Source: an uncultured Bacilli bacterium (lineage in GTDB: Bacteria; Bacillota_I; Bacilli_A; RF39; UBA660). Taken from it: a stretch of 64,000 bases of DNA. Position 1 is the stretch's first letter; each line of letters starts with the position of its first letter. A program made the translations under genes and the position numbers. The stretch spans positions 7,539 to 71,538 of the forward strand of contig CANRFG010000002.1 of NCBI GenBank assembly GCA_947629815.1, in the 5' to 3' direction. Of the stretch, positions 1,155 through 54,251 are shown piece by piece. The notes under the pieces were generated by a model. That model worked only from the letters and a program-made list of their open reading frames with translations, did not search any database and was not told where the DNA came from.

Positions 1155-2390
1155 ATGGATAAAAGTATAAAAGAAGCTTTATTTAACGAATATAATAGAC
1201 AAAATAATAATATTGAACTTATAGCTTCAGAAAATTTTGTTTCAAATGATATTTTAAAATTGCAAGGAAGTATACTAACAAATAAATATGCAGAAGGATA
1301 TCCTGGAAAAAGGTATTATGGTGGATGTAAATATATAGATGATATCGAAAATTTGGCAATAAAATATGCATGTTTATTATTTGATTGTAAATATGCGAAT
1401 GTACAACCACATAGTGGAAGTTCTGCTAATATGGCAGTTTATAGAGCTTTATTACAACATGGAGATAAAGTAATGGGTATGAATTTAAGTCATGGTGGGC
1501 ATTTAACACATGGACATAATATTAATTTTAGTGGAATAGACTATAAAATTGTTTCTTACGAACTAAATAAAGAAACAGAATTGATTGATTATGACGAATT
1601 AGAAAAAAAAGCATTAGAAGAAAAACCAAAAATGATAATAGCTGGTGCAAGTGCTTATTCAAGGAAAATAGATTTTAAAAGATTTAGAGAAATATGTGAT
1701 AAATGTGGAGCTATACTTATGGTAGATATGGCTCATATAGCAGGTTTGGTTGCAGCAGGACTACATGAAAATCCAATTTATTATGCAGATGTAGTAACAT
1801 CAACAACACATAAAACCTTAAGAGGCCCAAGAGGTGGATTAATACTAACTAATAACGAAGAAATAATAAAAAAAATAAATAAAACTATATTTCCAGGTAT
1901 ACAAGGTGGACCACTTATGCATGTTATTGCTGCAAAAGCTCAATGTTTTTACGAAGCATTACAACCATCATTTAAAGTATATCAAGAGCAAGTATTAAAA
2001 AATATAAAAGCTTTATCAAAAGTTTTAACTGAAAATGGTATTAGAATAGTATCAAATGGAACTGATAATCACTTAATACTTGTTGATGTCAAATCAATAG
2101 GTTTAAATGGACTTGAGGCAGAACAAATACTAGATAGTATAAATATAACTGTAAATAAAAATACAATTCCATATGAAACATTATCGCCAACAATAACAAG
2201 TGGAATTAGAATAGGAAGTCCTGCTATGACAACAAGAGGAATGAAAGAAGAAGAATTTACTTTAATAGGCAACATTATAGTTGAAGCGTTAAAAAATAAA
2301 GATGATGAAAAAAAATTAAATGAGCTAAAAGAACAAGTATCAAATTTAGTTAAAAAATTTCCATTAGAAATAGAGGGATATAATGAGTAA
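1155..2390 (+). CDS. glyA: serine hydroxymethyltransferase
   Basis: Full-length SHMT motifs ([23 protein letters not shown]), 411 aa. Confidence 0.95.
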
Positions 2391-3219
2391 TATAGATGGT
2401 AAATTAATAAGTTCAAAAATAAGAGAAGAAATAAAAACAGAAGTTAAAAATTATATGATAAAACCATGCTTAGCTGTGATACAAATAGGAAATGATGAAG
2501 CAAGTAATATTTATATAAACGCTAAGGAAAAAGCTTGTAATGAAGTTGGAATATATTTAAAACATATAAAATTTGATGAAACAACAAGAGAAATAGAAAT
2601 AATAAATAAAATAATTGAACTTAATAATGATGAATATGTACATGGTATACTACTACAATTACCAATACCTCAAAAATTTAACGAAGAAAGATTAATTAAT
2701 TATATAGCTAGAAATAAAGATGTAGATGGATTAACTGATATAAATGTTGGTAAACTTCTTAATAATAAAAAATGTTTGGTTTCTTGTACACCACAAGGAA
2801 TAATGAAGTTATTACAAGAATCAAATGTTGAAATAAGTGGTAAAAATGTTGTAATAGTTGGAAGAAGTAAATTAGTAGGAAAACCACTTATGAGTTTATT
2901 TTTAAATAATGATGCAACTGTTACAATATGTCACTCAAAAACACAAAATTTAAAAGAATTTACTAAAAATGCTGATATATTAGTAGTTGCAGTTGGGTGC
3001 AAACACCTAATAACAAAAGATATGGTTAAAGATGGAAGCGTTGTAATCGATGTTGGAATAAATAGAGTAGATGGAAAAATATATGGCGATGTTGATTATG
3101 AAAATGTAAAAAATAAAGCCTCTTTAATTACTCCTGTTCCAGGAGGGGTTGGACCAATGACAGTTGCTATGCTTTTAAATAATGTTAATATTTCATATAA
3201 AAATATGACTAATAAATAG
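2383..3219 (+). CDS. folD: bifunctional methylenetetrahydrofolate dehydrogenase/cyclohydrolase
   Basis: FolD motifs ([56 protein letters not shown]). It overlaps the glyA stop, consistent with an operon. Confidence 0.93.
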
Positions 3220-3236
3220 TAAATTATTGACTAAAA

Positions 3237-3467
3237 CATAAAAAAAATATATAATTTACTTATAAATTATCTTTTTAACAAGTTATTATATGTAGTATTA
3301 AAGAGAGAATGTATTGGGTGTAAGCATTTATACAAGTATAATAAAAGACATTAAAAATTATAGATAAATCGTTCATTCGCGTTAAGAATTTAAGCGCATG
3401 TTATTATTATAATATGAATTAAGGTGGCACCGCGGATTTTCCGTCCTTATTTTTAAGGACTTTTTTT
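3237..3467 (+). promoter_or_regulatory. T-box riboswitch leader (sigma-A promoter TTGACT-17-TATAAT at 3237-3265; AGAGA box about 3300; T-box sequence AATTAAGGTGGCACCGCGG at 3417-3435; terminator GTCCTTA-tttt-TAAGGAC + T7 at 3443-3467) controlling hisS-aspS
   Basis: Near-consensus T-box 19-mer sits immediately 5-prime of an intrinsic terminator and directly upstream of hisS. This is the standard T-box expression-platform arrangement. Confidence 0.85.
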
Positions 3468-3482
3468 ATTAGGAGGGATAAT

Positions 3483-4754
3483 ATGATACAAAAGCAAAAA
3501 GGGACATATGATGTATATGATGAAATAGGAAGAAAAATATTATATATCGAAGATTTACTTAAAGCATTAATGGAAAAATATAACTATGAGTATTTAAGAA
3601 CACCTTTATTTGAAGCAAGTGAATTGTTCCATAGAGGAGTTGGAGAAACTTCTGATATAGTATCTAAAGAAACATATGACTTTATTGATAGAGGAAATAG
3701 AAATATAACATTAAGACCAGAAGGAACTGCAGGAATTGTTAGAAGTTTTATTGAAAATAAAATGTATGCTAGAAACGATTTACCTGTAAAAACTTGGTAT
3801 TATGGTCCAATGTATAGATATGAAAGACCACAATCAGGTAGGTATAGAGAATTTTATCAATTTGGTGTAGAAGCCTTTGGAAGTAATGACCCTGCCTTAG
3901 ATGCTGAAATAATTAGTATTCCTGTTAATTTTTATAAATTATTAGGTTTAAAGGGAATAAAAGTTAATATTAATAGTTTAGGTGATACTGAGTCAAGATT
4001 AAAATATAAAGAAGCATTAATTAAATATTTAAAACCACATATATCTAATCTTTGTGAAGATTGCCAAAATAGATTTTTAAAAAATCCACTTAGAATATTA
4101 GATTGTAAAGTAGATAAAGATAGTGAAATTTTAAAAAATGTTCCAAATATTTTAGATTATTTAAATGAAGAAAGTAAAACACATTTTGAAAGTGTTCAAA
4201 AATATTTAAAACAATTAGACATTGAATATGTTGTAAATCCAAAAATAGTAAGAGGCCTTGATTATTATACTAATACTGTATTTGAAGTTGAAGCATCTGT
4301 AGAAGGATTTGGTAGTCAAAATGTTTTGTGTGCAGGTGGTAGATATAATAATCTTGTAGAAACTATAGGTGGCCCTAAAGTAGAGGGAGTAGGCTTCGCA
4401 CTTGGACTTGAAAGATTACTTACCGCTCTTGAATTTGAAGATATAAATTTAATAGATAAAAAATCAGTTGATGTATATATTATACCTATGGGTAATAATG
4501 AAAAAGAAATTTCAATGAAATTACTTAATAATATTAGAATGAATGGTTTCAGCGCAGATATCGATTATTTAAGTAGAAACATTAAATCTAATTTTAAACA
4601 AGCAGATAGATTAAATGCTAAATACATAATAATAATTGGAGAAGATGAACTTAAAACAAATACTATTACAATAAAAAATAATAAAACAAAAACTGAACAA
4701 AAATTAAATTTTGATGATATAATAGATTACTTAGATAAGGAGTTTAAGGAATGA
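3483..4754 (+). CDS. hisS: histidyl-tRNA synthetase
   Basis: Class II HisRS motifs (LRPEGTAGIVRS, YYGPMYRYERPQSGRYREFYQFGVE, GGRYNNLV). Confidence 0.95.
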   Translation: MIQKQKGTYDVYDEIGRKILYIEDLLKALMEKYNYEYLRTPLFEASELFHRGVGETSDIVSKETYDFIDRGNRNITLRPEGTAGIVRSFIENKMYARNDLPVKTWYYGPMYRYERPQSGRYREFYQFGVEAFGSNDPALDAEIISIPVNFYKLLGLKGIKVNINSLGDTESRLKYKEALIKYLKPHISNLCEDCQNRFLKNPLRILDCKVDKDSEILKNVPNILDYLNEESKTHFESVQKYLKQLDIEYVVNPKIVRGLDYYTNTVFEVEASVEGFGSQNVLCAGGRYNNLVETIGGPKVEGVGFALGLERLLTALEFEDINLIDKKSVDVYIIPMGNNEKEISMKLLNNIRMNGFSADIDYLSRNIKSNFKQADRLNAKYIIIIGEDELKTNTITIKNNKTKTEQKLNFDDIIDYLDKEFKE

Positions 4755-17804: not shown

Positions 17805-17881
17805 GGCGACGTAGCTCAGTTGGCTAGAGCACTCGGTTCATACCCGATAGGTCGAGAGTTCGAATCTCCCCGTCGCTACCA
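17805..17881 (+). tRNA. tRNA-Met (anticodon CAT; elongator-like; tRNA-Ile-lysidine not excluded)
   Basis: Hand-folded cloverleaf: acceptor GGCGACG/CGTCGCT, anticodon loop TTCATAC, T-loop TTCGAAT, encoded CCA. It closely resembles Bacillus elongator tRNA-Met. One A-C mismatch is present in the T-stem. Confidence 0.75.
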
Positions 17882-23602: not shown

Positions 23603-23677
23603 TGCCCTATAGCCAAGCGGTAAGGCATCGGACTCTGACTCCGACATGCGTTAGTTCGAATCTAACTAGGGCAGCCA
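23603..23677 (+). tRNA. tRNA-Gln (anticodon CTG)
   Basis: Cloverleaf with U1-A72 and acceptor TGCCCTA/TAGGGCA. It is nearly identical in backbone to Bacillus tRNA-Gln, but the anticodon loop CTCTGAC has C34 rather than U34. CCA is encoded. Confidence 0.8.
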
Positions 23678-25439: not shown

Positions 25440-25516
25440 GGCCTGTTGGTGAAGTGGCTTAACACATTGCCCTCTCAAGGCAACATTCACGAGTTCGAAT
25501 CTCGTACAGGTCACCA
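25440..25516 (+). tRNA. tRNA-Glu (anticodon CTC)
   Basis: Cloverleaf: acceptor GGCCTGT/ACAGGTC, anticodon stem TTGCC/GGCAA with loop CTCTCAA, T-loop TTCGAAT, encoded CCA. Confidence 0.78.
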
Positions 25517-29439: not shown

Positions 29440-29502
29440 ACTAAATATTATTTTTTATAAATTTATAGACTTTTAATATTTAGTATGTTATAATTAAATT
29501 GC

Positions 29503-29671
29503 CTAAAGATAAGAAATCGTCTGTTAAGAAAAACCTACAAATAAACGATTGGGAATCTAATTTATATGTGGTGTTGAATACCTTTTTATAAGGAATCCTA
29601 AAGCCTATAATGTGATGCCCACCTGGTAGACAGGGTTTATCGTTTCGGACGCCTACATCCTTAGGCTTTTT
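29503..29671 (+). ncRNA. candidate structured small RNA (6S/SsrS-like?), 5-prime and 3-prime ends paired in a long-range closing helix, ending in a hairpin and T6 run
   Basis: GC-enriched 170-nt ORF-free segment. The 5-prime GCCTAAaGATaagaaatCGTC pairs with the 3-prime GACGcctacATCcTTAGGC. The T6 run is followed by an independent TTGATT-17-TATAAT promoter for tcdA. Confidence 0.3.
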
Positions 29672-33838: not shown

Positions 33839-34240
33839 TTAATTGATAATATAACTTTTTTCAATATATTTTTGTATTTTATTTTCACTTATAGGATAAA
33901 TAGTGGCAACATAATTATCCTTGTTCTTTTGCAAATTCAATTTAACAACAACGCATACATTTTCCTCTATTTTTTTAAAATAAAGTAAAGAATTTTTACA
34001 TTTATCATAATAAACAAAAAGTGGATTATTTATTATATTTTCAATGTTAGTTATTGCTTTATTATAATTATCTACGCTTGAAAATTCAGAAATGTGTTTT
34101 GTTATGTGTAAGTATAAATCTAATGATTGAACAATTGTTGTGTTTTTATAATCATATAATTTATATTTATCAATTATGTCATTTGAAATTACACCAACAA
34201 TTTTTTTTATTTGCTTTTTGCTCATATTAATCACCACCAT
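33839..34240 (-). CDS. hypothetical protein (133 aa)
   Basis: ORF with RBS GGTGGTGA, preceded by a 230-nt structured leader. Confidence 0.5.
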   Translation of the reverse strand: MVVINMSKKQIKKIVGVISNDIIDKYKLYDYKNTTIVQSLDLYLHITKHISEFSSVDNYNKAITNIENIINNPLFVYYDKCKNSLLYFKKIEENVCVVVKLNLQKNKDNYVATIYPISENKIQKYIEKSYIIN

Positions 34241-34512: not shown

Positions 34513-34785
34513 CTATTCTTTTAATCCTTTTTCAACGCCATTCATAAGTCTTAATAAATCAATGACAAGTATTAAACCTAATAAATTAAGTATTACAAAT
34601 AAAACCATATTTTTATTAAAATTACCAATTCCATTAAAGAAACAAAGACCAATTAAAACCAAATAAAATAAAATACAAATAATATAAATAGTATATCTTT
34701 TACTTGATTTTACTTTTTTATTTGTTAACATTGAAAGTAATCCACCATTCATTAAATCTTGAGTGATATTATAAGTATTTTTCAT
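34513..34785 (-). CDS. small membrane protein (90 aa, 2 TM)
   Basis: Strong RBS GGAGGGAAG 8 nt before the ATG; two hydrophobic helices. Confidence 0.55.
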   Translation of the reverse strand: MKNTYNITQDLMNGGLLSMLTNKKVKSSKRYTIYIICILFYLVLIGLCFFNGIGNFNKNMVLFVILNLLGLILVIDLLRLMNGVEKGLKE

Positions 34786-39161: not shown

Positions 39162-39551
39162 ATGGATGTAAAAGTAAATTTTAATGGAACTGAAAAAAAT
39201 AAAAATGAAATAATATACAATAATATTATTGATACAATGGAAGATATGAATATTTCTAAACAAGAACAAATAGAATATTTAAAACAAAAAATAACTTATT
39301 TAGAAAATACTTCAAAAGAAAGAGCAATTATAATTATAACTGTATTAATAGGATTTATACTTTTATTATTTGGAGTTTATTTAATGAGTATAAATATTAA
39401 AACATATGGTGCGATATTTATAGTTGTAAGTTTTATAGCAGTAATAACTAAACTTATATTAGTTATTAGAAAATTACAAGCATCATCTAAAGATGGAAAA
39501 TTTGATAGTGTTGAACAATTAAGAAAAATATTAAACTTAAAATTAAAATAA
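39162..39551 (+). CDS. hypothetical membrane protein (129 aa)
   Basis: ORF with RBS GGAGGG; two TM helices. Confidence 0.5.
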   Translation: MDVKVNFNGTEKNKNEIIYNNIIDTMEDMNISKQEQIEYLKQKITYLENTSKERAIIIITVLIGFILLLFGVYLMSINIKTYGAIFIVVSFIAVITKLILVIRKLQASSKDGKFDSVEQLRKILNLKLK

Positions 39552-39588
39552 TTTTAAGTTTTTATAATTTTATATAAGGAGTTTAATA

Positions 39589-40191
39589 ATGAATAAAAAT
39601 TACAATAAATATGTTGATACCATTTATTTAATAAAAAAACTAGAAGAAGAATTAGATTTACCTTTTTTTGAAATCTTAGAAAAAGTTAAAAAATCTAATA
39701 TTCAAATGGAAGAACAAGAAGTAGATAAATATTTTTATGGTATTGTAAACTTAGATTACTTGAATAAATGTATTTTAATACTTAAAAATAAATGTATAAC
39801 TTTATTAGAATTAATATTAAAATTAGCTAACAATAATATAAGTGATATTGAAAGCGAACTTGATAATTTAGATATAATATTAAATAAAAGAGGAAAAATA
39901 TTGTACAGCGATATTATTAGATTAACAAAACCAACTATATACAATATAAATACATTATTTTGTATGGTTAAAATGTCAAGCGAAAAAGAAACATATATGA
40001 CTGAATTTAATCTTTTAGACTTTGTAAAAGAATATGAAGTGTTTTTATATGATGAATATCCAAGTACTTTATTACAATTTAAAAATATCAATTATGTAAA
40101 AAAGGGATTTATTAATCTAACTAATAATCAAATAGAAGAATCTAAAAAAAGAATAGAAACAAAAGTACTAAGATTAAATAAAAAAGACTAA
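39589..40191 (+). CDS. hypothetical protein (200 aa)
   Basis: ORF with RBS AAGGAG; no recognisable domain. Confidence 0.5.
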   Translation: MNKNYNKYVDTIYLIKKLEEELDLPFFEILEKVKKSNIQMEEQEVDKYFYGIVNLDYLNKCILILKNKCITLLELILKLANNNISDIESELDNLDIILNKRGKILYSDIIRLTKPTIYNINTLFCMVKMSSEKETYMTEFNLLDFVKEYEVFLYDEYPSTLLQFKNINYVKKGFINLTNNQIEESKKRIETKVLRLNKKD

Positions 40192-40307
40192 ATATAATTT
40201 TTTTAGAAATGATGCATATAATGTATTAAAAGTAAATAGTTTTTATTAAAAAAAATAAAAAACTTTTCAAATTTGACAAAAAAGTGTAAATTTGATATAC
40301 TTGATAT

Positions 40308-40933
40308 ATATTGATTGGCACATTATTCTAGTCAATATGATTTATTAGGAAGACGGGGCTAAAAATCCGTTAAAGAGCATATCTGTGAAACTTTTGGTGT
40401 TTGCTTCTTACGCCCAGTTTGGGGTGAATGCTGGAAGGTAGAGTTATGGGCGCACATAATGGCATATGTTTCCGACCCATTCCTCATGGAGACCTAATCT
40501 TGTGGTAAGCATATACACATACCGTTGACTTGACTTACTACGACTTAGGCTTGAACCTACTTTGTGGCGAAAGTTATGAGTAGTGTAGCTTGTCTTGAGT
40601 GGATATTTGGAACGAATGAACAATTTTAAGTAATTTATAGCTAAGATTATTTAAAAATCGCATTCTGAAATTATGTCTGCAAAAAAGAATTATTAATAAA
40701 TCAGTTGGGGAGGAAATCTCCTAGAGTGTCATTGATATAGGATTGCAGTGTGTACTAAGTGGCAATCGAGTAATATAATAGGTAACTATATATCTGCTTT
40801 TTTAAAGGGGAACCGCAAGTATGGTAACATCTTGTAAGAGCAGGGGAAATCCAACTCGACCTAAGACACAAAGTTAACTATATTAATAGCCAGACAAGAG
40901 TTTTAAAGGGGGAAATTACCCTTTTTATTTTTT
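40308..40933 (+). ncRNA. large structured noncoding RNA, about 625 nt; candidate OLE (ornate large extremophilic) RNA
   Basis: ORF-free on both strands and markedly GC-enriched against a 22-25% GC background. It has its own promoter (TTGACA-17-TATACT at 40273-40301) and intrinsic terminator (AAAGGG-N8-CCCTTT + T-run at 40905-40933). The size matches OLE. A small polytopic membrane protein follows immediately, and nusB-xseA-xseB lie adjacent, which is the conserved OLE/oapA neighbourhood. Confidence 0.45.
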
Positions 40934-40950
40934 AATTTCTGAGGTGACTT

Positions 40951-41493
40951 ATGGCAAAAAAGAAAACTAATAACACAAAATGGATAATAAAAATAACTGT
41001 TTTGGCCTTTATAATTTCATTAATATTCTCTTTAATATCAGAACTTGCTTTAAATAATGTTGGTATAATTATTGGAGTTATTGTTTTATTTATATTTATA
41101 TTAATAGGAGTAGTATTTGATATGATAGGTGTTGCAGTTACAGTATGTGATGAAAAACCTATTCATTCCATGAATTCTAGAAAATTAAAAGGCGCTAATG
41201 TAGCAGTTATCCTTAAAAAAAATTCAGCAAAAGTTTCATCTTTTTGTAACGATGTAGTAGGTGATATTTGTGGTATTATATCAGGTTCTGCTGGTATCGT
41301 TATTGCTACAACTATTTCAATTAAACTTAATGTAAATCCATTATATGTAAATTTAATTGTAACAGGTTTAGTAGCTGCGCTTACTATAGGTGGTAAAGCA
41401 ATGGGAAAAGATATAGCTATTAAAAAAAGTAATAATATAATGAATATTTTTTCTAAATTTATTTCTTATTTTTATACTCCAAAAAATAAATAA
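40951..41493 (+). CDS. small polytopic membrane protein, candidate OapA (OLE-associated protein A)
   Basis: 180 aa with four hydrophobic helices and a conserved-looking acidic motif (FDMIGVAVTVCDE). RBS GAGGTGA. Position directly 3-prime of the large ncRNA. Confidence 0.4.
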   Translation: MAKKKTNNTKWIIKITVLAFIISLIFSLISELALNNVGIIIGVIVLFIFILIGVVFDMIGVAVTVCDEKPIHSMNSRKLKGANVAVILKKNSAKVSSFCNDVVGDICGIISGSAGIVIATTISIKLNVNPLYVNLIVTGLVAALTIGGKAMGKDIAIKKSNNIMNIFSKFISYFYTPKNK

Positions 41494-41554
41494 AAATTAT
41501 TTAAAATTTATAGATTTTATAAATGTCTTTTGATAAAATAAAATAGGTGGTTAT

Positions 41555-41956
41555 ATGATGCAATTAAATAGAAGTGAATTAAGAGTAAAAATAATGACAA
41601 TTTTATATCAAATAAGTATATATGAAAAAAATAAAATAAAATATAATTTAGACGATATTTTTAAAGAAACACTTGATATAGATAATGAATTTGTTAAAGA
41701 AACTGTATATGGAGTAATTACATATAAAAATGAAATAGATAAAATCGCAAATGAAAATATGAAAGATTGGACAATAGATAGATTAGGATATACTGACCAA
41801 GCTATACTTAGAATGGGGATATTCGAGTTATTATATACAGAAACACCAGATATAGTCGCTATAAATGAGGCTGTAGAACTTGCTAAACAATATAGTGATG
41901 ACAAAGTTAAAAACATGATAAATGGTGTTATGGATAGTATTCTTCATAACAAATAG
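41555..41956 (+). CDS. nusB: transcription antitermination factor NusB
   Basis: NusB fold motifs (RVKIMTILYQ, DRLGYTDQAILRMGIFELLY, INEAVELAKQY). Confidence 0.88.
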   Translation: MMQLNRSELRVKIMTILYQISIYEKNKIKYNLDDIFKETLDIDNEFVKETVYGVITYKNEIDKIANENMKDWTIDRLGYTDQAILRMGIFELLYTETPDIVAINEAVELAKQYSDDKVKNMINGVMDSILHNK

Positions 41957-41964
41957 GTGATGAT

Positions 41965-43233
41965 ATGAATGATGTAAGTAAATATTTAACTGTTACTGCA
42001 CTAACAAGATATATCAAATATAAAATAGATAATGACGAAAACTTAAGATTAGTTTTTTTAAAAGGAGAAATTTCAAATTTTAAAGAACATACAACAGGAC
42101 ATTTATATTTTTCTGTAAAAGATGAAACAAGTAAAATAAACGCTATTATGTTTAGTTCAAATGCTAAAAAAATAGGATTTAAAATTACAGATGGTATGAA
42201 AGTATTGATAGTTGGTAGAATCAGTGTATATGAGGCAACAGGTAACTATCAAATATATGTTGATGAAATGATGGAAGATGGTATAGGAAATCTATATTTA
42301 GAATTTGAAAAATTAAAGAAAAAACTTTCAGAAGAAGGATTATTTGATAAAGAAAAGAAAAAACCAATACCTAAATTTCCAGAAAAAATAGGTATTGTTA
42401 CTGCTTCTACAGGAGCTGCTATAAAAGATATAATTTCTACAATAAAAAGAAGATATCCTATATGTAAAACATATTTATTTCCAAGTTTAGTTCAAGGTGA
42501 AAATGCAGCAGATGATATAGTTAATAAAATATCTACTGCTCAACTTTATGATTTAGACATATTAATAATTGGTAGAGGTGGAGGCTCTATAGAGGATTTA
42601 TGGCCTTTTAATGAAGAGAAAGTAGCGCGTGCAATATTTTCATCAAAAATACCTACAATAAGCGCTGTTGGGCATGAAATTGACTTTACAATAGCAGATT
42701 TTGTTGCAGATTTACGAGCCCCTACACCAACAGGAGCGGCTGAAATGGCTGTTCCTAATATTACAGATGTTGTAAAACATATAAACAATTTAAATATTAG
42801 AATAAATGAAAGTATAAATACTAAGATAAATTATCAAAAATTAAAAGTTGATTCTTTGAGAAACTCATTTATACTTAAAAATCCAATGTTAATTTATGAA
42901 AACAAAAAACAAAAACTTGATTTATTATTTGAAAACTTAAATAAAAATATTTTCATAAATTTATCTAATAAACGACTTTTAATAGATAATTTTAAAAATA
43001 ATTATATAATTAAAAATCCAAATATTTTATATGAAAAACAAAAAGATAAATTATTAAATATAATACAAAAACTTGAACTTGTTAATCCACTAAGTATACT
43101 TAAAAAAGGATATACTTTAACATATAAAGAAAACAAGTTAATTAAATCAGTTAAAGATATAAATAAAGATGAAATAATAAAAATTAAATTACATGATGGA
43201 TTAATTACATCAAAAGTAATAGATAAGGAGTAA
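41965..43233 (+). CDS. xseA: exodeoxyribonuclease VII large subunit
   Basis: OB-fold N-terminus (VFLKGEISNFKEHTTGHLYFSVKDE) and catalytic core (RGGGSIEDLWPFNEE). Confidence 0.9.
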   Translation: MNDVSKYLTVTALTRYIKYKIDNDENLRLVFLKGEISNFKEHTTGHLYFSVKDETSKINAIMFSSNAKKIGFKITDGMKVLIVGRISVYEATGNYQIYVDEMMEDGIGNLYLEFEKLKKKLSEEGLFDKEKKKPIPKFPEKIGIVTASTGAAIKDIISTIKRRYPICKTYLFPSLVQGENAADDIVNKISTAQLYDLDILIIGRGGGSIEDLWPFNEEKVARAIFSSKIPTISAVGHEIDFTIADFVADLRAPTPTGAAEMAVPNITDVVKHINNLNIRINESINTKINYQKLKVDSLRNSFILKNPMLIYENKKQKLDLLFENLNKNIFINLSNKRLLIDNFKNNYIIKNPNILYEKQKDKLLNIIQKLELVNPLSILKKGYTLTYKENKLIKSVKDINKDEIIKIKLHDGLITSKVIDKE

Positions 43234-43234
43234 T

Positions 43235-43456
43235 ATGACAAAAGAAAAAAAATTCGAAGAAAAAATGGAAGAATTAGAAAACATAGTAAATGAACTTGAA
43301 AATGGAAACACAGATTTAGATGATTCAATAAATAAATATACTAAGGCTATGCAATTAATAAAAGAATGCGACGAGAAATTAAAAAATGTCGAAGAACAAG
43401 TAAATAAAATAGTACTTGAAAATGGCGAAATTAAAGATTTTAATATAGAAGAATAG
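43235..43456 (+). CDS. xseB: exodeoxyribonuclease VII small subunit
   Basis: 73-aa coiled-coil protein with the XseB signature (FEEKMEELENIVNELENG); translationally coupled to xseA. Confidence 0.85.
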   Translation: MTKEKKFEEKMEELENIVNELENGNTDLDDSINKYTKAMQLIKECDEKLKNVEEQVNKIVLENGEIKDFNIEE

Positions 43457-43543: not shown

Positions 43544-44605
43544 GTGTTTAAAATGAAAAAATATGAATTATCAATTAAAGATTATGATTGGTTGAAAAAA
43601 ATAATTAATATTAGTATTTCAATAAAAAAATTGTATGATAATCTAATTAAATTAGAAGTATTAGGTAATAAAAATACAGATGAATATTTAAAATACTTAA
43701 ATTATTTAGATATTGGTATTGAAATAGAAGATAAAATATATAAAGAAGCAAACTTAAATTTTCCAAAAAGTGATGCTCTTGCTGGTTTTTTAAATGGTTT
43801 TTTAGTTGAAAAAAACTTGAATAAAAATGTATTAGCAAGAGATTTAGATATTAATAATAAAAATATACTACCAAAAGATTTAGATATAGTTTTAATGCGT
43901 ATAATCTCTGTATTAGTTTATAATTGTATTTCTGATTATGAATCTATTCAAAAGATGTCTAATAATGACTTAAAAGAATTAAAAGAAACATTTGGTATAA
44001 AAAACTTAGTTGGTTTATCCATTTATAGTGGAATTGAATTAAAAAAATCACTTGATAAAGATTCTAATATGGGTTTTCTTACTTTTTTACAAGAATTTAT
44101 AAAAGATAATAATTATTCTAGTTTTAAAGAAGATTTAATTGAATATAAATATTATAATATATTTATGAATAAAAATGTTGAAAATTATATAAAAGAAAAT
44201 CATTTTGAAATACCTAAATTTTATACTAATTCTAGATTTATAGCAGATTTAACTAGAACTGATTTATATTTATATCAACTATTTAAAAATAATTATGCAA
44301 ATAGAATTGCAATGGAATCTATTTTAAATATTTTAGAAATTTCAGATAGTGATTATATGAAAACCAATGAATCTATCTTTTCAATTTTAAATCAATGTTA
44401 TTTGCGTTCTTCACTTTTACAAATGAACGATGATTATATAAGTGATTCTAATTATGCTTTTCATGAATTTGTAGAAGGTAAAGAATATAATAAAAATTAT
44501 CCTGAACATAATATAAGTGAACAAATAATAATAAGTTGTTTTAAAGGAATTAAAAAAGACAGAGAAAAACAATTTGAAGTGTCAATTAGATATAGAAAAA
44601 AATAA
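43544..44605 (+). CDS. hypothetical protein (353 aa) occupying the position where ispA lies in Bacillus; no polyprenyl-synthase DDxxD motifs
   Basis: Long ORF; no recognisable domain. Confidence 0.5.
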   Translation: MFKMKKYELSIKDYDWLKKIINISISIKKLYDNLIKLEVLGNKNTDEYLKYLNYLDIGIEIEDKIYKEANLNFPKSDALAGFLNGFLVEKNLNKNVLARDLDINNKNILPKDLDIVLMRIISVLVYNCISDYESIQKMSNNDLKELKETFGIKNLVGLSIYSGIELKKSLDKDSNMGFLTFLQEFIKDNNYSSFKEDLIEYKYYNIFMNKNVENYIKENHFEIPKFYTNSRFIADLTRTDLYLYQLFKNNYANRIAMESILNILEISDSDYMKTNESIFSILNQCYLRSSLLQMNDDYISDSNYAFHEFVEGKEYNKNYPEHNISEQIIISCFKGIKKDREKQFEVSIRYRKK

Positions 44606-50953: not shown

Positions 50954-51205
50954 TTATTTATTAGTATTATGGTAGTAATTAAATGTAGATAATTGTTCAC
51001 TTACCCACTCTAAATCATCTAGTTCAATATAACTATCATTTAAATAATCTTCTATTTTAAAAATAAGCTCATTTATATTTTTATAATCTAAATAATTTAT
51101 ATTATATTTATTTAATACATCAATCTGTTCATCAGACAAATATATACCATTTTTTCTTTGTTTAATACTTCTTTTATTAAATTCTAACTCAATATTTTCT
51201 TCCAT
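50954..51205 (-). CDS. hypothetical acidic protein (83 aa)
   Basis: ORF only. Confidence 0.4.
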   Translation of the reverse strand: MEENIELEFNKRSIKQRKNGIYLSDEQIDVLNKYNINYLDYKNINELIFKIEDYLNDSYIELDDLEWVSEQLSTFNYYHNTNK

Positions 51206-53348: not shown

Positions 53349-54251
53349 CTAATTTCCACCATGTGGGTGAAATGAATCATAATTTTCTTTTAATTTTTTA
53401 TTAGAAACATGTGTGTATATTTGTGTTGTTGAAATATTGGAGTGTCCTAGCATTTCTTGTATGCTTCTTAAATCAGCGCCACCATTTAGTAAATGTGTTG
53501 CGAAAGAATGTCTTAATGTATGTGGTGAAAAAGATGTTTCTATATTCTTTTCTTTAGCGATTGTTTTAAGTATTTTAAAAAATCCTTGTCTAGTCATTTT
53601 TTTGCCATGATTATTTAAAAATAAGTAATCATTATTTTCTTTTTTTATTAATAAATTTCTATACTCTTTTATATAAATATCTAAATAATATAAAGTGTAA
53701 TCTCCAAGTGGTATTATTCTTTCTTTAGAGCCTTTTCCAATTGTTCTTACAATACAATTTTCTAAATCTAAATCAGTTACTTTTAAATTAACGAGTTCAC
53801 TTACTCTAAGTCCTGTTCCATACATTAATTCTATCATTGCTTTATTTCTATAACTAAATTTATCTTTTAAATCAATATCTAATAGTTTTAAAACTTCTTC
53901 TTCACTTAATACTTTTGGAAGTGTTTTAGTTAATTTAGGAAGTTCCAAATCAAGTGATGGATTATTTTTAATATACTTTTCTATTATTAAAAACTTATAA
54001 AATGACCTTATAACAGATATGGAATGAGCAATTGATTTTTCTGTCAATTCATTTTTTTTCAAATATTTTAAATATTCTTTTATATCAGATGAATTTACTT
54101 CTTTTAAATAAATTTTTTGCTCTTTTAAATAGTCATAATATTTTTTTAGTTCCATTGTATATGAATCAACTGTATTGTTACTATACTTTTTATCTATTAA
54201 TAAATAGTTTTTATATTCTTCTATTTTATTAGTAAATTCTATATCATTCAT
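53349..54251 (-). CDS. tyrosine site-specific recombinase, XerC/XerD family
   Basis: Catalytic R..HxxR..Y region (LRHSFATHLLNGGADLRSIQEMLGHSNISTTQIYTHV). No flanking repeats or mobile-element cargo. Confidence 0.85.
   Translation of the reverse strand: MNDIEFTNKIEEYKNYLLIDKKYSNNTVDSYTMELKKYYDYLKEQKIYLKEVNSSDIKEYLKYLKKNELTEKSIAHSISVIRSFYKFLIIEKYIKNNPSLDLELPKLTKTLPKVLSEEEVLKLLDIDLKDKFSYRNKAMIELMYGTGLRVSELVNLKVTDLDLENCIVRTIGKGSKERIIPLGDYTLYYLDIYIKEYRNLLIKKENNDYLFLNNHGKKMTRQGFFKILKTIAKEKNIETSFSPHTLRHSFATHLLNGGADLRSIQEMLGHSNISTTQIYTHVSNKKLKENYDSFHPHGGN

Follow-up and report, generated by a model that had tools for sequence, protein, structure and literature searches.

We analysed a 64,000-nucleotide (nt) window from the genome of an uncultured Bacilli bacterium (contig CANRFG010000002.1, positions 7,539 to 71,538), in which an initial annotation had proposed a candidate OLE (ornate, large, extremophilic) RNA next to the gene for a small membrane protein. 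The OLE family was reportedly first described in 2006 by Puerta-Fernandez et al. It was surveyed across GTDB in 2024 by Fernando & Breaker (PMC11332333). All coordinates given here are positions in the window. The locus is made up of the following features, in which ole denotes the RNA gene and oapA the gene for the 180-amino-acid (aa) protein downstream of it:

40273–40301, plus strand: predicted ole promoter, with −35 TTGACA (40273–40278), a 17-nt spacer, TG (40293–40294) and −10 TATACT (40296–40301)
40299–40909, plus strand: OLE RNA gene, delimited by the match to Rfam family RF01071, with a structured core bounded by the two strands of P1 (5′ strand at 40315, 3′ strand at 40893)
40904–40936, plus strand: terminator-like hairpin (40904–40927) with U-tract, between ole and oapA
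40941–41493, plus strand: oapA, with ribosome-binding site GAGGTG (40941–40946) and coding sequence 40951–41493 (180 aa)

Identification of the OLE RNA gene

All 4227 Rfam families were searched for in the entire window, with the gathering scores as cut-offs. RF01071 (OLE) matched 40299–40909 on the plus strand with 391.1 bits (E value 2e-111) against a gathering score of 50, and the match, 611 nt in length, takes in model positions 1–616 of 616 and is not truncated. This was decisive for the OLE candidate of the initial annotation. No second family among the 4227 was detected in the OLE region, and RNase P, tmRNA, 6S, group I and II intron, GOLLD, HEARO and ROOL RNAs, all of which had been named as possibilities to be checked, gave no match there. 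Nothing was found that contradicts membership of the OLE family. Together with the evidence from relatives, structure and the adjoining gene set out below, it is close to certain that 40299–40909 is a full-length OLE RNA and 40951–41493 its obligate membrane partner OapA.

The composition of the region also sets it apart, with a GC content of 36.5% across the OLE match against 23.2% in the whole window. The initial annotation gave about 40% GC, which describes the peak (0.405–0.445 in 200-nt windows across 40300–40599, with flanks at 0.15–0.25) and is too high for the mean of the RNA. The claim that 40192–40950 contains no open reading frame (ORF) of at least 60 aa on either strand was borne out, the longest being 59 aa on the minus strand (40444–40623); ORFs of 31–59 aa do occur on the minus strand of the OLE region.

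Conservation of the OLE fold in relatives

Relatives were retrieved via the 180-aa downstream protein, with one genome taken per GTDB species. Closest to the window are genomes of uncultured gut bacteria that carry the labels Bacilli, Bacillota, Tenericutes or Mollicutes (53–81% protein identity), and more distant ones include Oscillospiraceae and the cultured Papillibacter cinnamivorans (approximately 47% protein identity). Full-length OLE RNAs were present in 15 of 17 scanned loci, scoring 374–505 bits, with the Papillibacter cinnamivorans OLE at 505 bits, and each had a homologue of the 180-aa protein just downstream. In most of these 15 loci OLE ends a few tens of nt before the protein start. 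In the remaining two loci, one OLE was cut off by the end of the locus and one locus (L012) was without OLE.

The fold was assessed in a MAFFT alignment of 15 OLEs, the window sequence and 14 relatives, onto which the Rfam consensus structure was projected via the window sequence. Standard pairs filled 89.9% of cells in the consensus structure, compared to 36.5–46.0% when the 3′ partners were slid by 1–3 columns. The structure comprises 151 pairs in 19 helices, and both sides had changed in 89 of these pairs, compared to 25–37 in the slid versions, and none of 500 shuffles matched any of the observed structure measures. The covariation in related genomes that the initial annotation had called for is hence strong. 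RNAalifold, run on the same alignment, independently recovered P1, P2, P4–P10 and P12–P15, adding the small P15 hairpin, like P1 and P2, to the projected Rfam helices. When folded alone the window OLE gave the same architecture (z = −3.0). Across the 15 sequences, which are 56–93% identical to the window, 204 of 611 positions are invariant; the literature puts highly conserved nucleotides in OLE at approximately 25%.

Structural elements and OLE type

The elements located within the RNA, all on the plus strand, are:

40315–40319 with 40889–40893, plus strand: P1 (RNAalifold)
40324–40331 with 40721–40728, plus strand: P2 (RNAalifold)
40333–40707, plus strand: OLE domain 1, P3 to P9
40333–40348 and 40693–40707, plus strand: P3/P3.1 strands (RNAduplex)
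40358–40365, plus strand: A-rich L4 loop GCUAAAAA
40391–40437, plus strand: P5/P5.1 hairpin
40638–40643, plus strand: palindromic L9.3 loop UAGCUA (AGCU)
40773–40793, plus strand: P13 hairpin, OapB-type binding site, with a 5-base-pair (bp) stem, bulged A (40778), 3-bp stem and GUAA tetraloop (40782–40785)
40824–40827, plus strand: P14.1, second GUAA loop

Three types of OLE are distinguished: the full-length form, variant 1, which has short P7–P9 and is often without the OapB site, and variant 2, which is without P7 and P8 and is common in RF39 (PMC11332333). The variants share a host type with the window, namely uncultured AT-rich gut Bacillota known solely from metagenome assemblies, however they shorten or lose P7, P8, P9 and the P13 site, all of which are kept here, and both variants were ruled out. 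P7 comprises 17 modelled pairs (helix 6), P8 11 (helix 7) and the long P9 35 in four segments (helices 8–11). Because P7, P8, the long P9 and P13 with its GUAA loop and bulged A are present, the window OLE is classified from its modelled helices as the full-length type, despite the very AT-rich gut host. As in other full-length OLEs (PMC11332333), it is approximately 600 nt long, has stems P1–P10 and P12–P15 and the conserved nucleotides, and is followed directly by oapA. It differs from the full-length model in that the P7 loop is 13 nt larger, and its GC content of 36.5%, with AT-rich stems, compares to 54–60% in two Clostridia examples.

OapB binding needs a GNRA loop and a one-nucleotide bulge (PMC7936274), and both are found in P13 of the window. 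The hairpin itself (helix 17) is well supported by the 15-OLE alignment, where seven of its eight pairs change on both sides. The conserved nucleotides of the k-turn region are also kept in the window OLE. P3 was annotated by neither Rfam nor RNAalifold, yet RNAduplex found 11–15 bp in every sequence, formed by lineage-specific sequences; the strands are UGAUUUAUUA/UAAUAAAUCA in the window and CCGCUUC/GAAGCGG in one of the Clostridia (L031).

Dimer contacts in OLE have been seen by cryo-electron microscopy (cryo-EM) at the L4, L5.1–L6.1 and L9.3 loops (PMC12265935, PMC12286853). Here, L5.1 is CGCCCAG (loop GCCCA) and L6.1 is AAUGGCAU (loop UGGC), hence with the A-rich L4 and palindromic L9.3 loops listed above the predicted dimerisation motifs L4, L5.1/L6.1 and L9.3 are all present. 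The L9.3 palindrome is AGCU in the window and in five relatives, and GGCC in the others. Switching of L9.3 among GGCC, GAUC and AGCU palindromes has been published as evidence of an intermolecular kissing loop (PMC12286853, Kretsch et al. 2025), therefore the AGCU loop is confirmatory and was dropped as a new observation.

The downstream gene encodes an OapA-like membrane protein

The 180-aa protein was compared one by one with the position, topology and motif that mark OapA (PMC11332333, PMC12265935). In terms of position, the ATG at 40951 sits 42 nt past the end of the OLE match, and the two genes are linked alike at most of the 15 loci where OLE is full-length. For topology, AlphaFold2 (mean pLDDT 79) predicts four long hydrophobic helices, at residues 9–36, 39–65, 92–126 and 130–158, and hydropathy peaks cover the same segments, in line with the four-helix membrane protein initially described. 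OapA is marked by a conserved DxxxD motif which is absent from CNNM domains (PMC11332333), and this is found as DVVGD at residues 101–105 (nt 41251–41265), inside an invariant SSFCNDV-GDI block. Neither D101 nor D105 varied in alignments of 19 and of 22 homologues.

Sequence searches were less informative. There was no usable Pfam or NCBIfam match for the protein, the sole one being a sub-threshold match to Serinc (E value 0.0014), and a PDB sequence search returned nothing at an E value of 1 or below. The OapA call hence rests on synteny, motif and fold, by which the protein behaves as OapA and not as a member of an unrelated family, an outcome that had been named in advance as refuting. In related records the protein is without a name or is labelled ‘hypothetical protein’. 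The homologue in L012 (4001–4525) is 54% identical and has DxxxD intact.

Transcription signals at the locus

The promoter TTGACA-17-TATACT at 40273–40301, already picked out in the initial annotation, matches 11 of 12 positions with a TG-extended −10 and is the best promoter match in 39500–42000. Promoter-like matches as a class are not enriched in this interval (17 found, 21 expected). The window promoter is credible because an equivalent promoter is conserved upstream of the OLE genes of all 13 low-GC relatives (10–12 of 12 matches, always with TG), where it ends 10–17 nt before the P1 5′ strand. On this comparison the predicted promoter, strong, of the sigma-A type and dedicated to ole, is a conserved part of the locus, and transcription of ole probably starts near 40308.

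An intrinsic terminator had also been proposed between the two genes, and it was recovered as a weak hairpin (40904–40927) with a U-tract extending to approximately 40936. The terminator scan made three overlapping calls at the hairpin where 0.2 were expected. A hairpin and U-tract lie between ole and oapA in approximately ten of the 15 loci, with differing loop or stem sequences; they are absent in L003, L005, L008, L014 and L018, where ole runs directly into the oapA ribosome-binding site. In the window, the U-tract lies only approximately 15 nt before the oapA ribosome-binding site, too short a gap for a further promoter. No terminator-like site was found in 40937–42000, and oapA, nusB, xseA and xseB are probably co-transcribed.

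These signals suggest that ole would have a promoter to itself, giving an RNA of approximately 625 nt (625–630 nt from the start near 40308 to the U-tract), in agreement with the length first estimated. Most transcripts would end by partial termination at the weak hairpin and U-tract, and read-through would supply the oapA-nusB-xseA-xseB message, so that more RNA than OapA would be made. This arrangement differs from Halalkalibacterium halodurans, where polycistronic transcription is reported (PMC12265935), in that ole in the window appears to be served by a strong promoter of its own and to be separated from oapA by a terminator-like hairpin.

Caveats to the assignment and alternative explanations

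Several caveats attach to the reading of the locus as an ordinary OLE RNA gene with its OapA partner. In the RNA, a small hairpin at model positions 424–435, between P10 and P12, is lost (window position approximately 40729), and 13 of 153 modelled pairs are non-canonical. The terminator hairpin, at approximately −9 kcal/mol (z = −0.8), is no more stable than shuffled sequence, and partial termination is the simplest reading of a start, termination and read-through that are deduced from sequence. The protein misses Pfam CNNM (PF01595) at an E value of 0.01 or below, a match that is precomputed for many of its close homologues, and its link to H. halodurans OapA is indirect, through homologues beside OLE in Papillibacter and Oscillospiraceae. 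No OLE was found within 4 kb on either side of the OapA homologue in L012, even at an E value of 0.01 or below, hence either ole lies further away or this OapA is without a linked ole. Neither a KOW-type OapB nor an L7Ae-type OapC (YbxF) was identified on searching the small ORFs of the 64-kb window, which cannot show genome-wide absence; two small ORFs of suitable size, at 34513–34785 and 50954–51205 (both minus strand), had no Pfam match and no significant PDB match. Finally, OLE ranks among the largest non-coding RNAs of bacteria that still await a biochemical function, and this holds for the model species too.

The missing hairpin is also deleted in all 12 low-GC relatives (alignment columns 491–499) and is kept in the two Clostridia sequences (L031, L065), hence it is a stable lineage trait and not recent decay. 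It is conceivable, if rather doubtful, that this lineage-wide loss and the transcription signals mark a subtype of OLE locus that has not been described before, distinct in structure and regulation. In such a subtype, ole would be an autonomous, strongly promoted gene, the weak terminator would gate oapA-nusB-xseAB, and OLE would double as a leader of approximately 600 nt with read-through setting the ratio of RNA to OapA.

It is very improbable that ole is a decaying relic, a pseudogene no longer functional in a reduced AT-rich genome. The lost hairpin and the non-canonical pairs would fit decay in a host with only 23% GC, and reduced gut lineages have been reported with trimmed OLE variants and without OapB and OapC (PMC11332333). 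However, the RNA holds its GC content well above this background, keeps all major stems and dimer motifs along with the 204 positions that are invariant across lineages, and is accompanied by a conserved promoter and an intact oapA with an invariant key motif, whilst the hairpin is missing from the low-GC relatives as a whole. The parts of OLE that resist extreme AT pressure are the conserved joining regions, the dimer loops, P3 and the P13 site; the small hairpin at model positions 424–435 and the length of the P7 loop are shown here to be dispensable.

The protein could instead be a stand-alone fragment of a CNNM/CorC/MpfA-type Mg2+ transporter that lies beside ole by chance and does not bind OLE, although we give this very little credence. 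Its fold is most like the transmembrane domains of CorB and CorC among the MpfA/CorB/CorC CNNM transporters (PDB 7M1U, 7CFG), at 15–17% identity over aligned residues, and some homologues carry a precomputed Pfam match to CNNM PF01595; the unlinked homologue in L012 also points this way. An MpfA/CorC-type protein should combine CNNM with a CBS pair and CorC_HlyC, three membrane helices and a conserved proline, and should be without DxxxD. Pfam detected no CBS or CorC_HlyC domain in the 180-aa protein, hence it is not an MpfA-type transporter, and both its fourth helix and its DxxxD motif set it apart from CNNM domains, in which this motif is absent. The gene for it is also closely coupled to ole, lying just downstream in 15 of the 17 loci scanned.

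The two remaining explanations have next to no likelihood. Before the search, just the size, the GC enrichment and the missing ORF were known, which are common to many structured RNAs, and a different or unclassified large RNA resembling OLE in size and composition only could have been at hand; the full-model match to OLE as sole Rfam family and the consensus structure kept with abundant compensatory changes argue against it. That the region codes for small proteins with incidental RNA structure would draw on the minus-strand ORFs of 31–59 aa, yet the longest ORF switches strand, frame and sequence between relatives, so that no ORF is conserved over the 15 homologous regions and the region is not protein-coding, the helix substitutions are compensatory, and it is the plus strand that carries the promoter and terminator. 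A small ORF conserved across relatives had been put forward as grounds for rejecting the OLE call.

The locus is therefore a canonical full-length OLE with oapA, an ordinary member of a well-studied and already known family. It adds nothing new in kind, being a clean example of OLE from an uncultured gut bacterium with 23% GC, and for annotation 40299–40909 should be labelled as ole and 40951–41493 as oapA.

Proposed function of the OLE particle

OLE RNAs are characteristically abundant transcripts within an RNA–protein complex at the membrane, and disrupting them gives stress phenotypes. The OLE RNA of H. halodurans assembles with OapA, OapB and OapC into a membrane-localised particle on which tolerance of cold, short-chain alcohols, excess Mg2+ and poor carbon sources depends (PMC12265935). 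OapA binds OLE RNA cooperatively, with two proteins to one RNA, and recruits it to the membrane (Block et al. 2011, cited in PMC12265935). Cryo-EM of Clostridium OLE RNAs revealed a homodimer, and it has been proposed that its P3 stems cross the bilayer next to a dimer of OapA (PMC12265935). OLE RNA is now proposed to be a membrane-spanning RNA dimer.

The mechanism at this locus is most likely the same as in these model systems (H. halodurans and Clostridium), because every RNA and protein element of that model is conserved here. By analogy, two OLE RNAs would dimerise via their A-rich L4 loops, L5.1–L6.1 contacts and the palindromic L9.3 kissing loop, and beside P3 the RNA would be held at the cytoplasmic membrane, or passed through it, by a dimer of the four-helix, CNNM-like OapA. 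The resulting RNA–protein particle may help the cell to face stresses such as those listed for H. halodurans.

Gene neighbourhood of ole

The gene order at the locus is ole-oapA-nusB-xseA-xseB, followed by a 353-aa ORF, spoIVB, and then a transglycosylase gene and spoIIM, with mutS upstream of ole. The neighbours for which details are given below are:

1155–3219: glyA-folD, adjacent pair
39589–40191, plus strand: 200-aa ORF just upstream of the ole promoter, no family match
41555–41956, plus strand: nusB (TIGR01951, 122 bits)
41965–43233, plus strand: xseA (TIGR00237, 482 bits)
43235–43456, plus strand: xseB (TIGR01280, 76 bits)
43544–44605, plus strand: 353-aa ORF after xseB, no Pfam or NCBIfam match

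The TIGR matches agree with the nusB, xseA and xseB genes first read downstream of the membrane protein, and folD does lie beside glyA as noted then. The order in H. halodurans is presumably nusB-folD-xseA-xseB-ispA-ole-oapA-dxs. The initial annotation took ispA and dxs to be absent and replaced by an ORF of no recognised family. The latter part held for the 353-aa ORF, whilst for the former ispA and dxs were not found among the size-compatible ORFs scanned, a scan that did not take in every ORF. The functions of the neighbours match the categories reported near ole, which are DNA repair, transcription/translation, sporulation and cell wall (PMC12265935, PMC11332333). The host is also like known OLE hosts, which are Bacillota and typically anaerobic or extremophilic, being a Bacillota gut anaerobe with the sporulation genes for SpoIVB and SpoIIM nearby.

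The 353-aa ORF is fast-evolving, with 44% identity to the nearest relative, L009, whose neighbouring genes are 86–92% identical, and its occurrence was limited to the same strain and L009. The 200-aa ORF is absent from L009 and was found only in the same strain. Neither ORF travels with ole-oapA in other lineages, hence there is no reason to call them OLE partners and both were rejected as such.

Identity to L009 is mosaic, with three upstream genes at 94–99%, oapA, nusB, xseA and xseB at 81–92% and the 353-aa ORF at 44%, a pattern which suggests strain-specific insertion and recombination around the locus. A 6S RNA gene (RF00013, 55.7 bits), the sole 6S match in the window, lies at 29497–29671 on the plus strand, approximately 10.6 kb upstream of ole. 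In the relative L018, the 6S gene (3049–3229, 69.7 bits) is directly upstream of ole (3306–3905).

Other features of the window

A 133-aa protein of the PBECR3 family (phage-Barnase/EndoU/colicin/RelE-like nucleases, E value 4e-15) is encoded at 33839–34240 on the minus strand, adjoined by the unannotatable 90-aa ORF at 34513–34785 (minus strand), and the two may form a toxin–immunity module beside mutS. At 53349–54251 (minus strand) there is a 300-aa tyrosine recombinase of the phage-integrase family (E value 2e-55); this might represent XerC/XerD or point to a mobile element. The Rfam scan also detected three tRNA genes on the plus strand, at 17805–17878, 23603–23674 and 25440–25513, scoring 61–67 bits.

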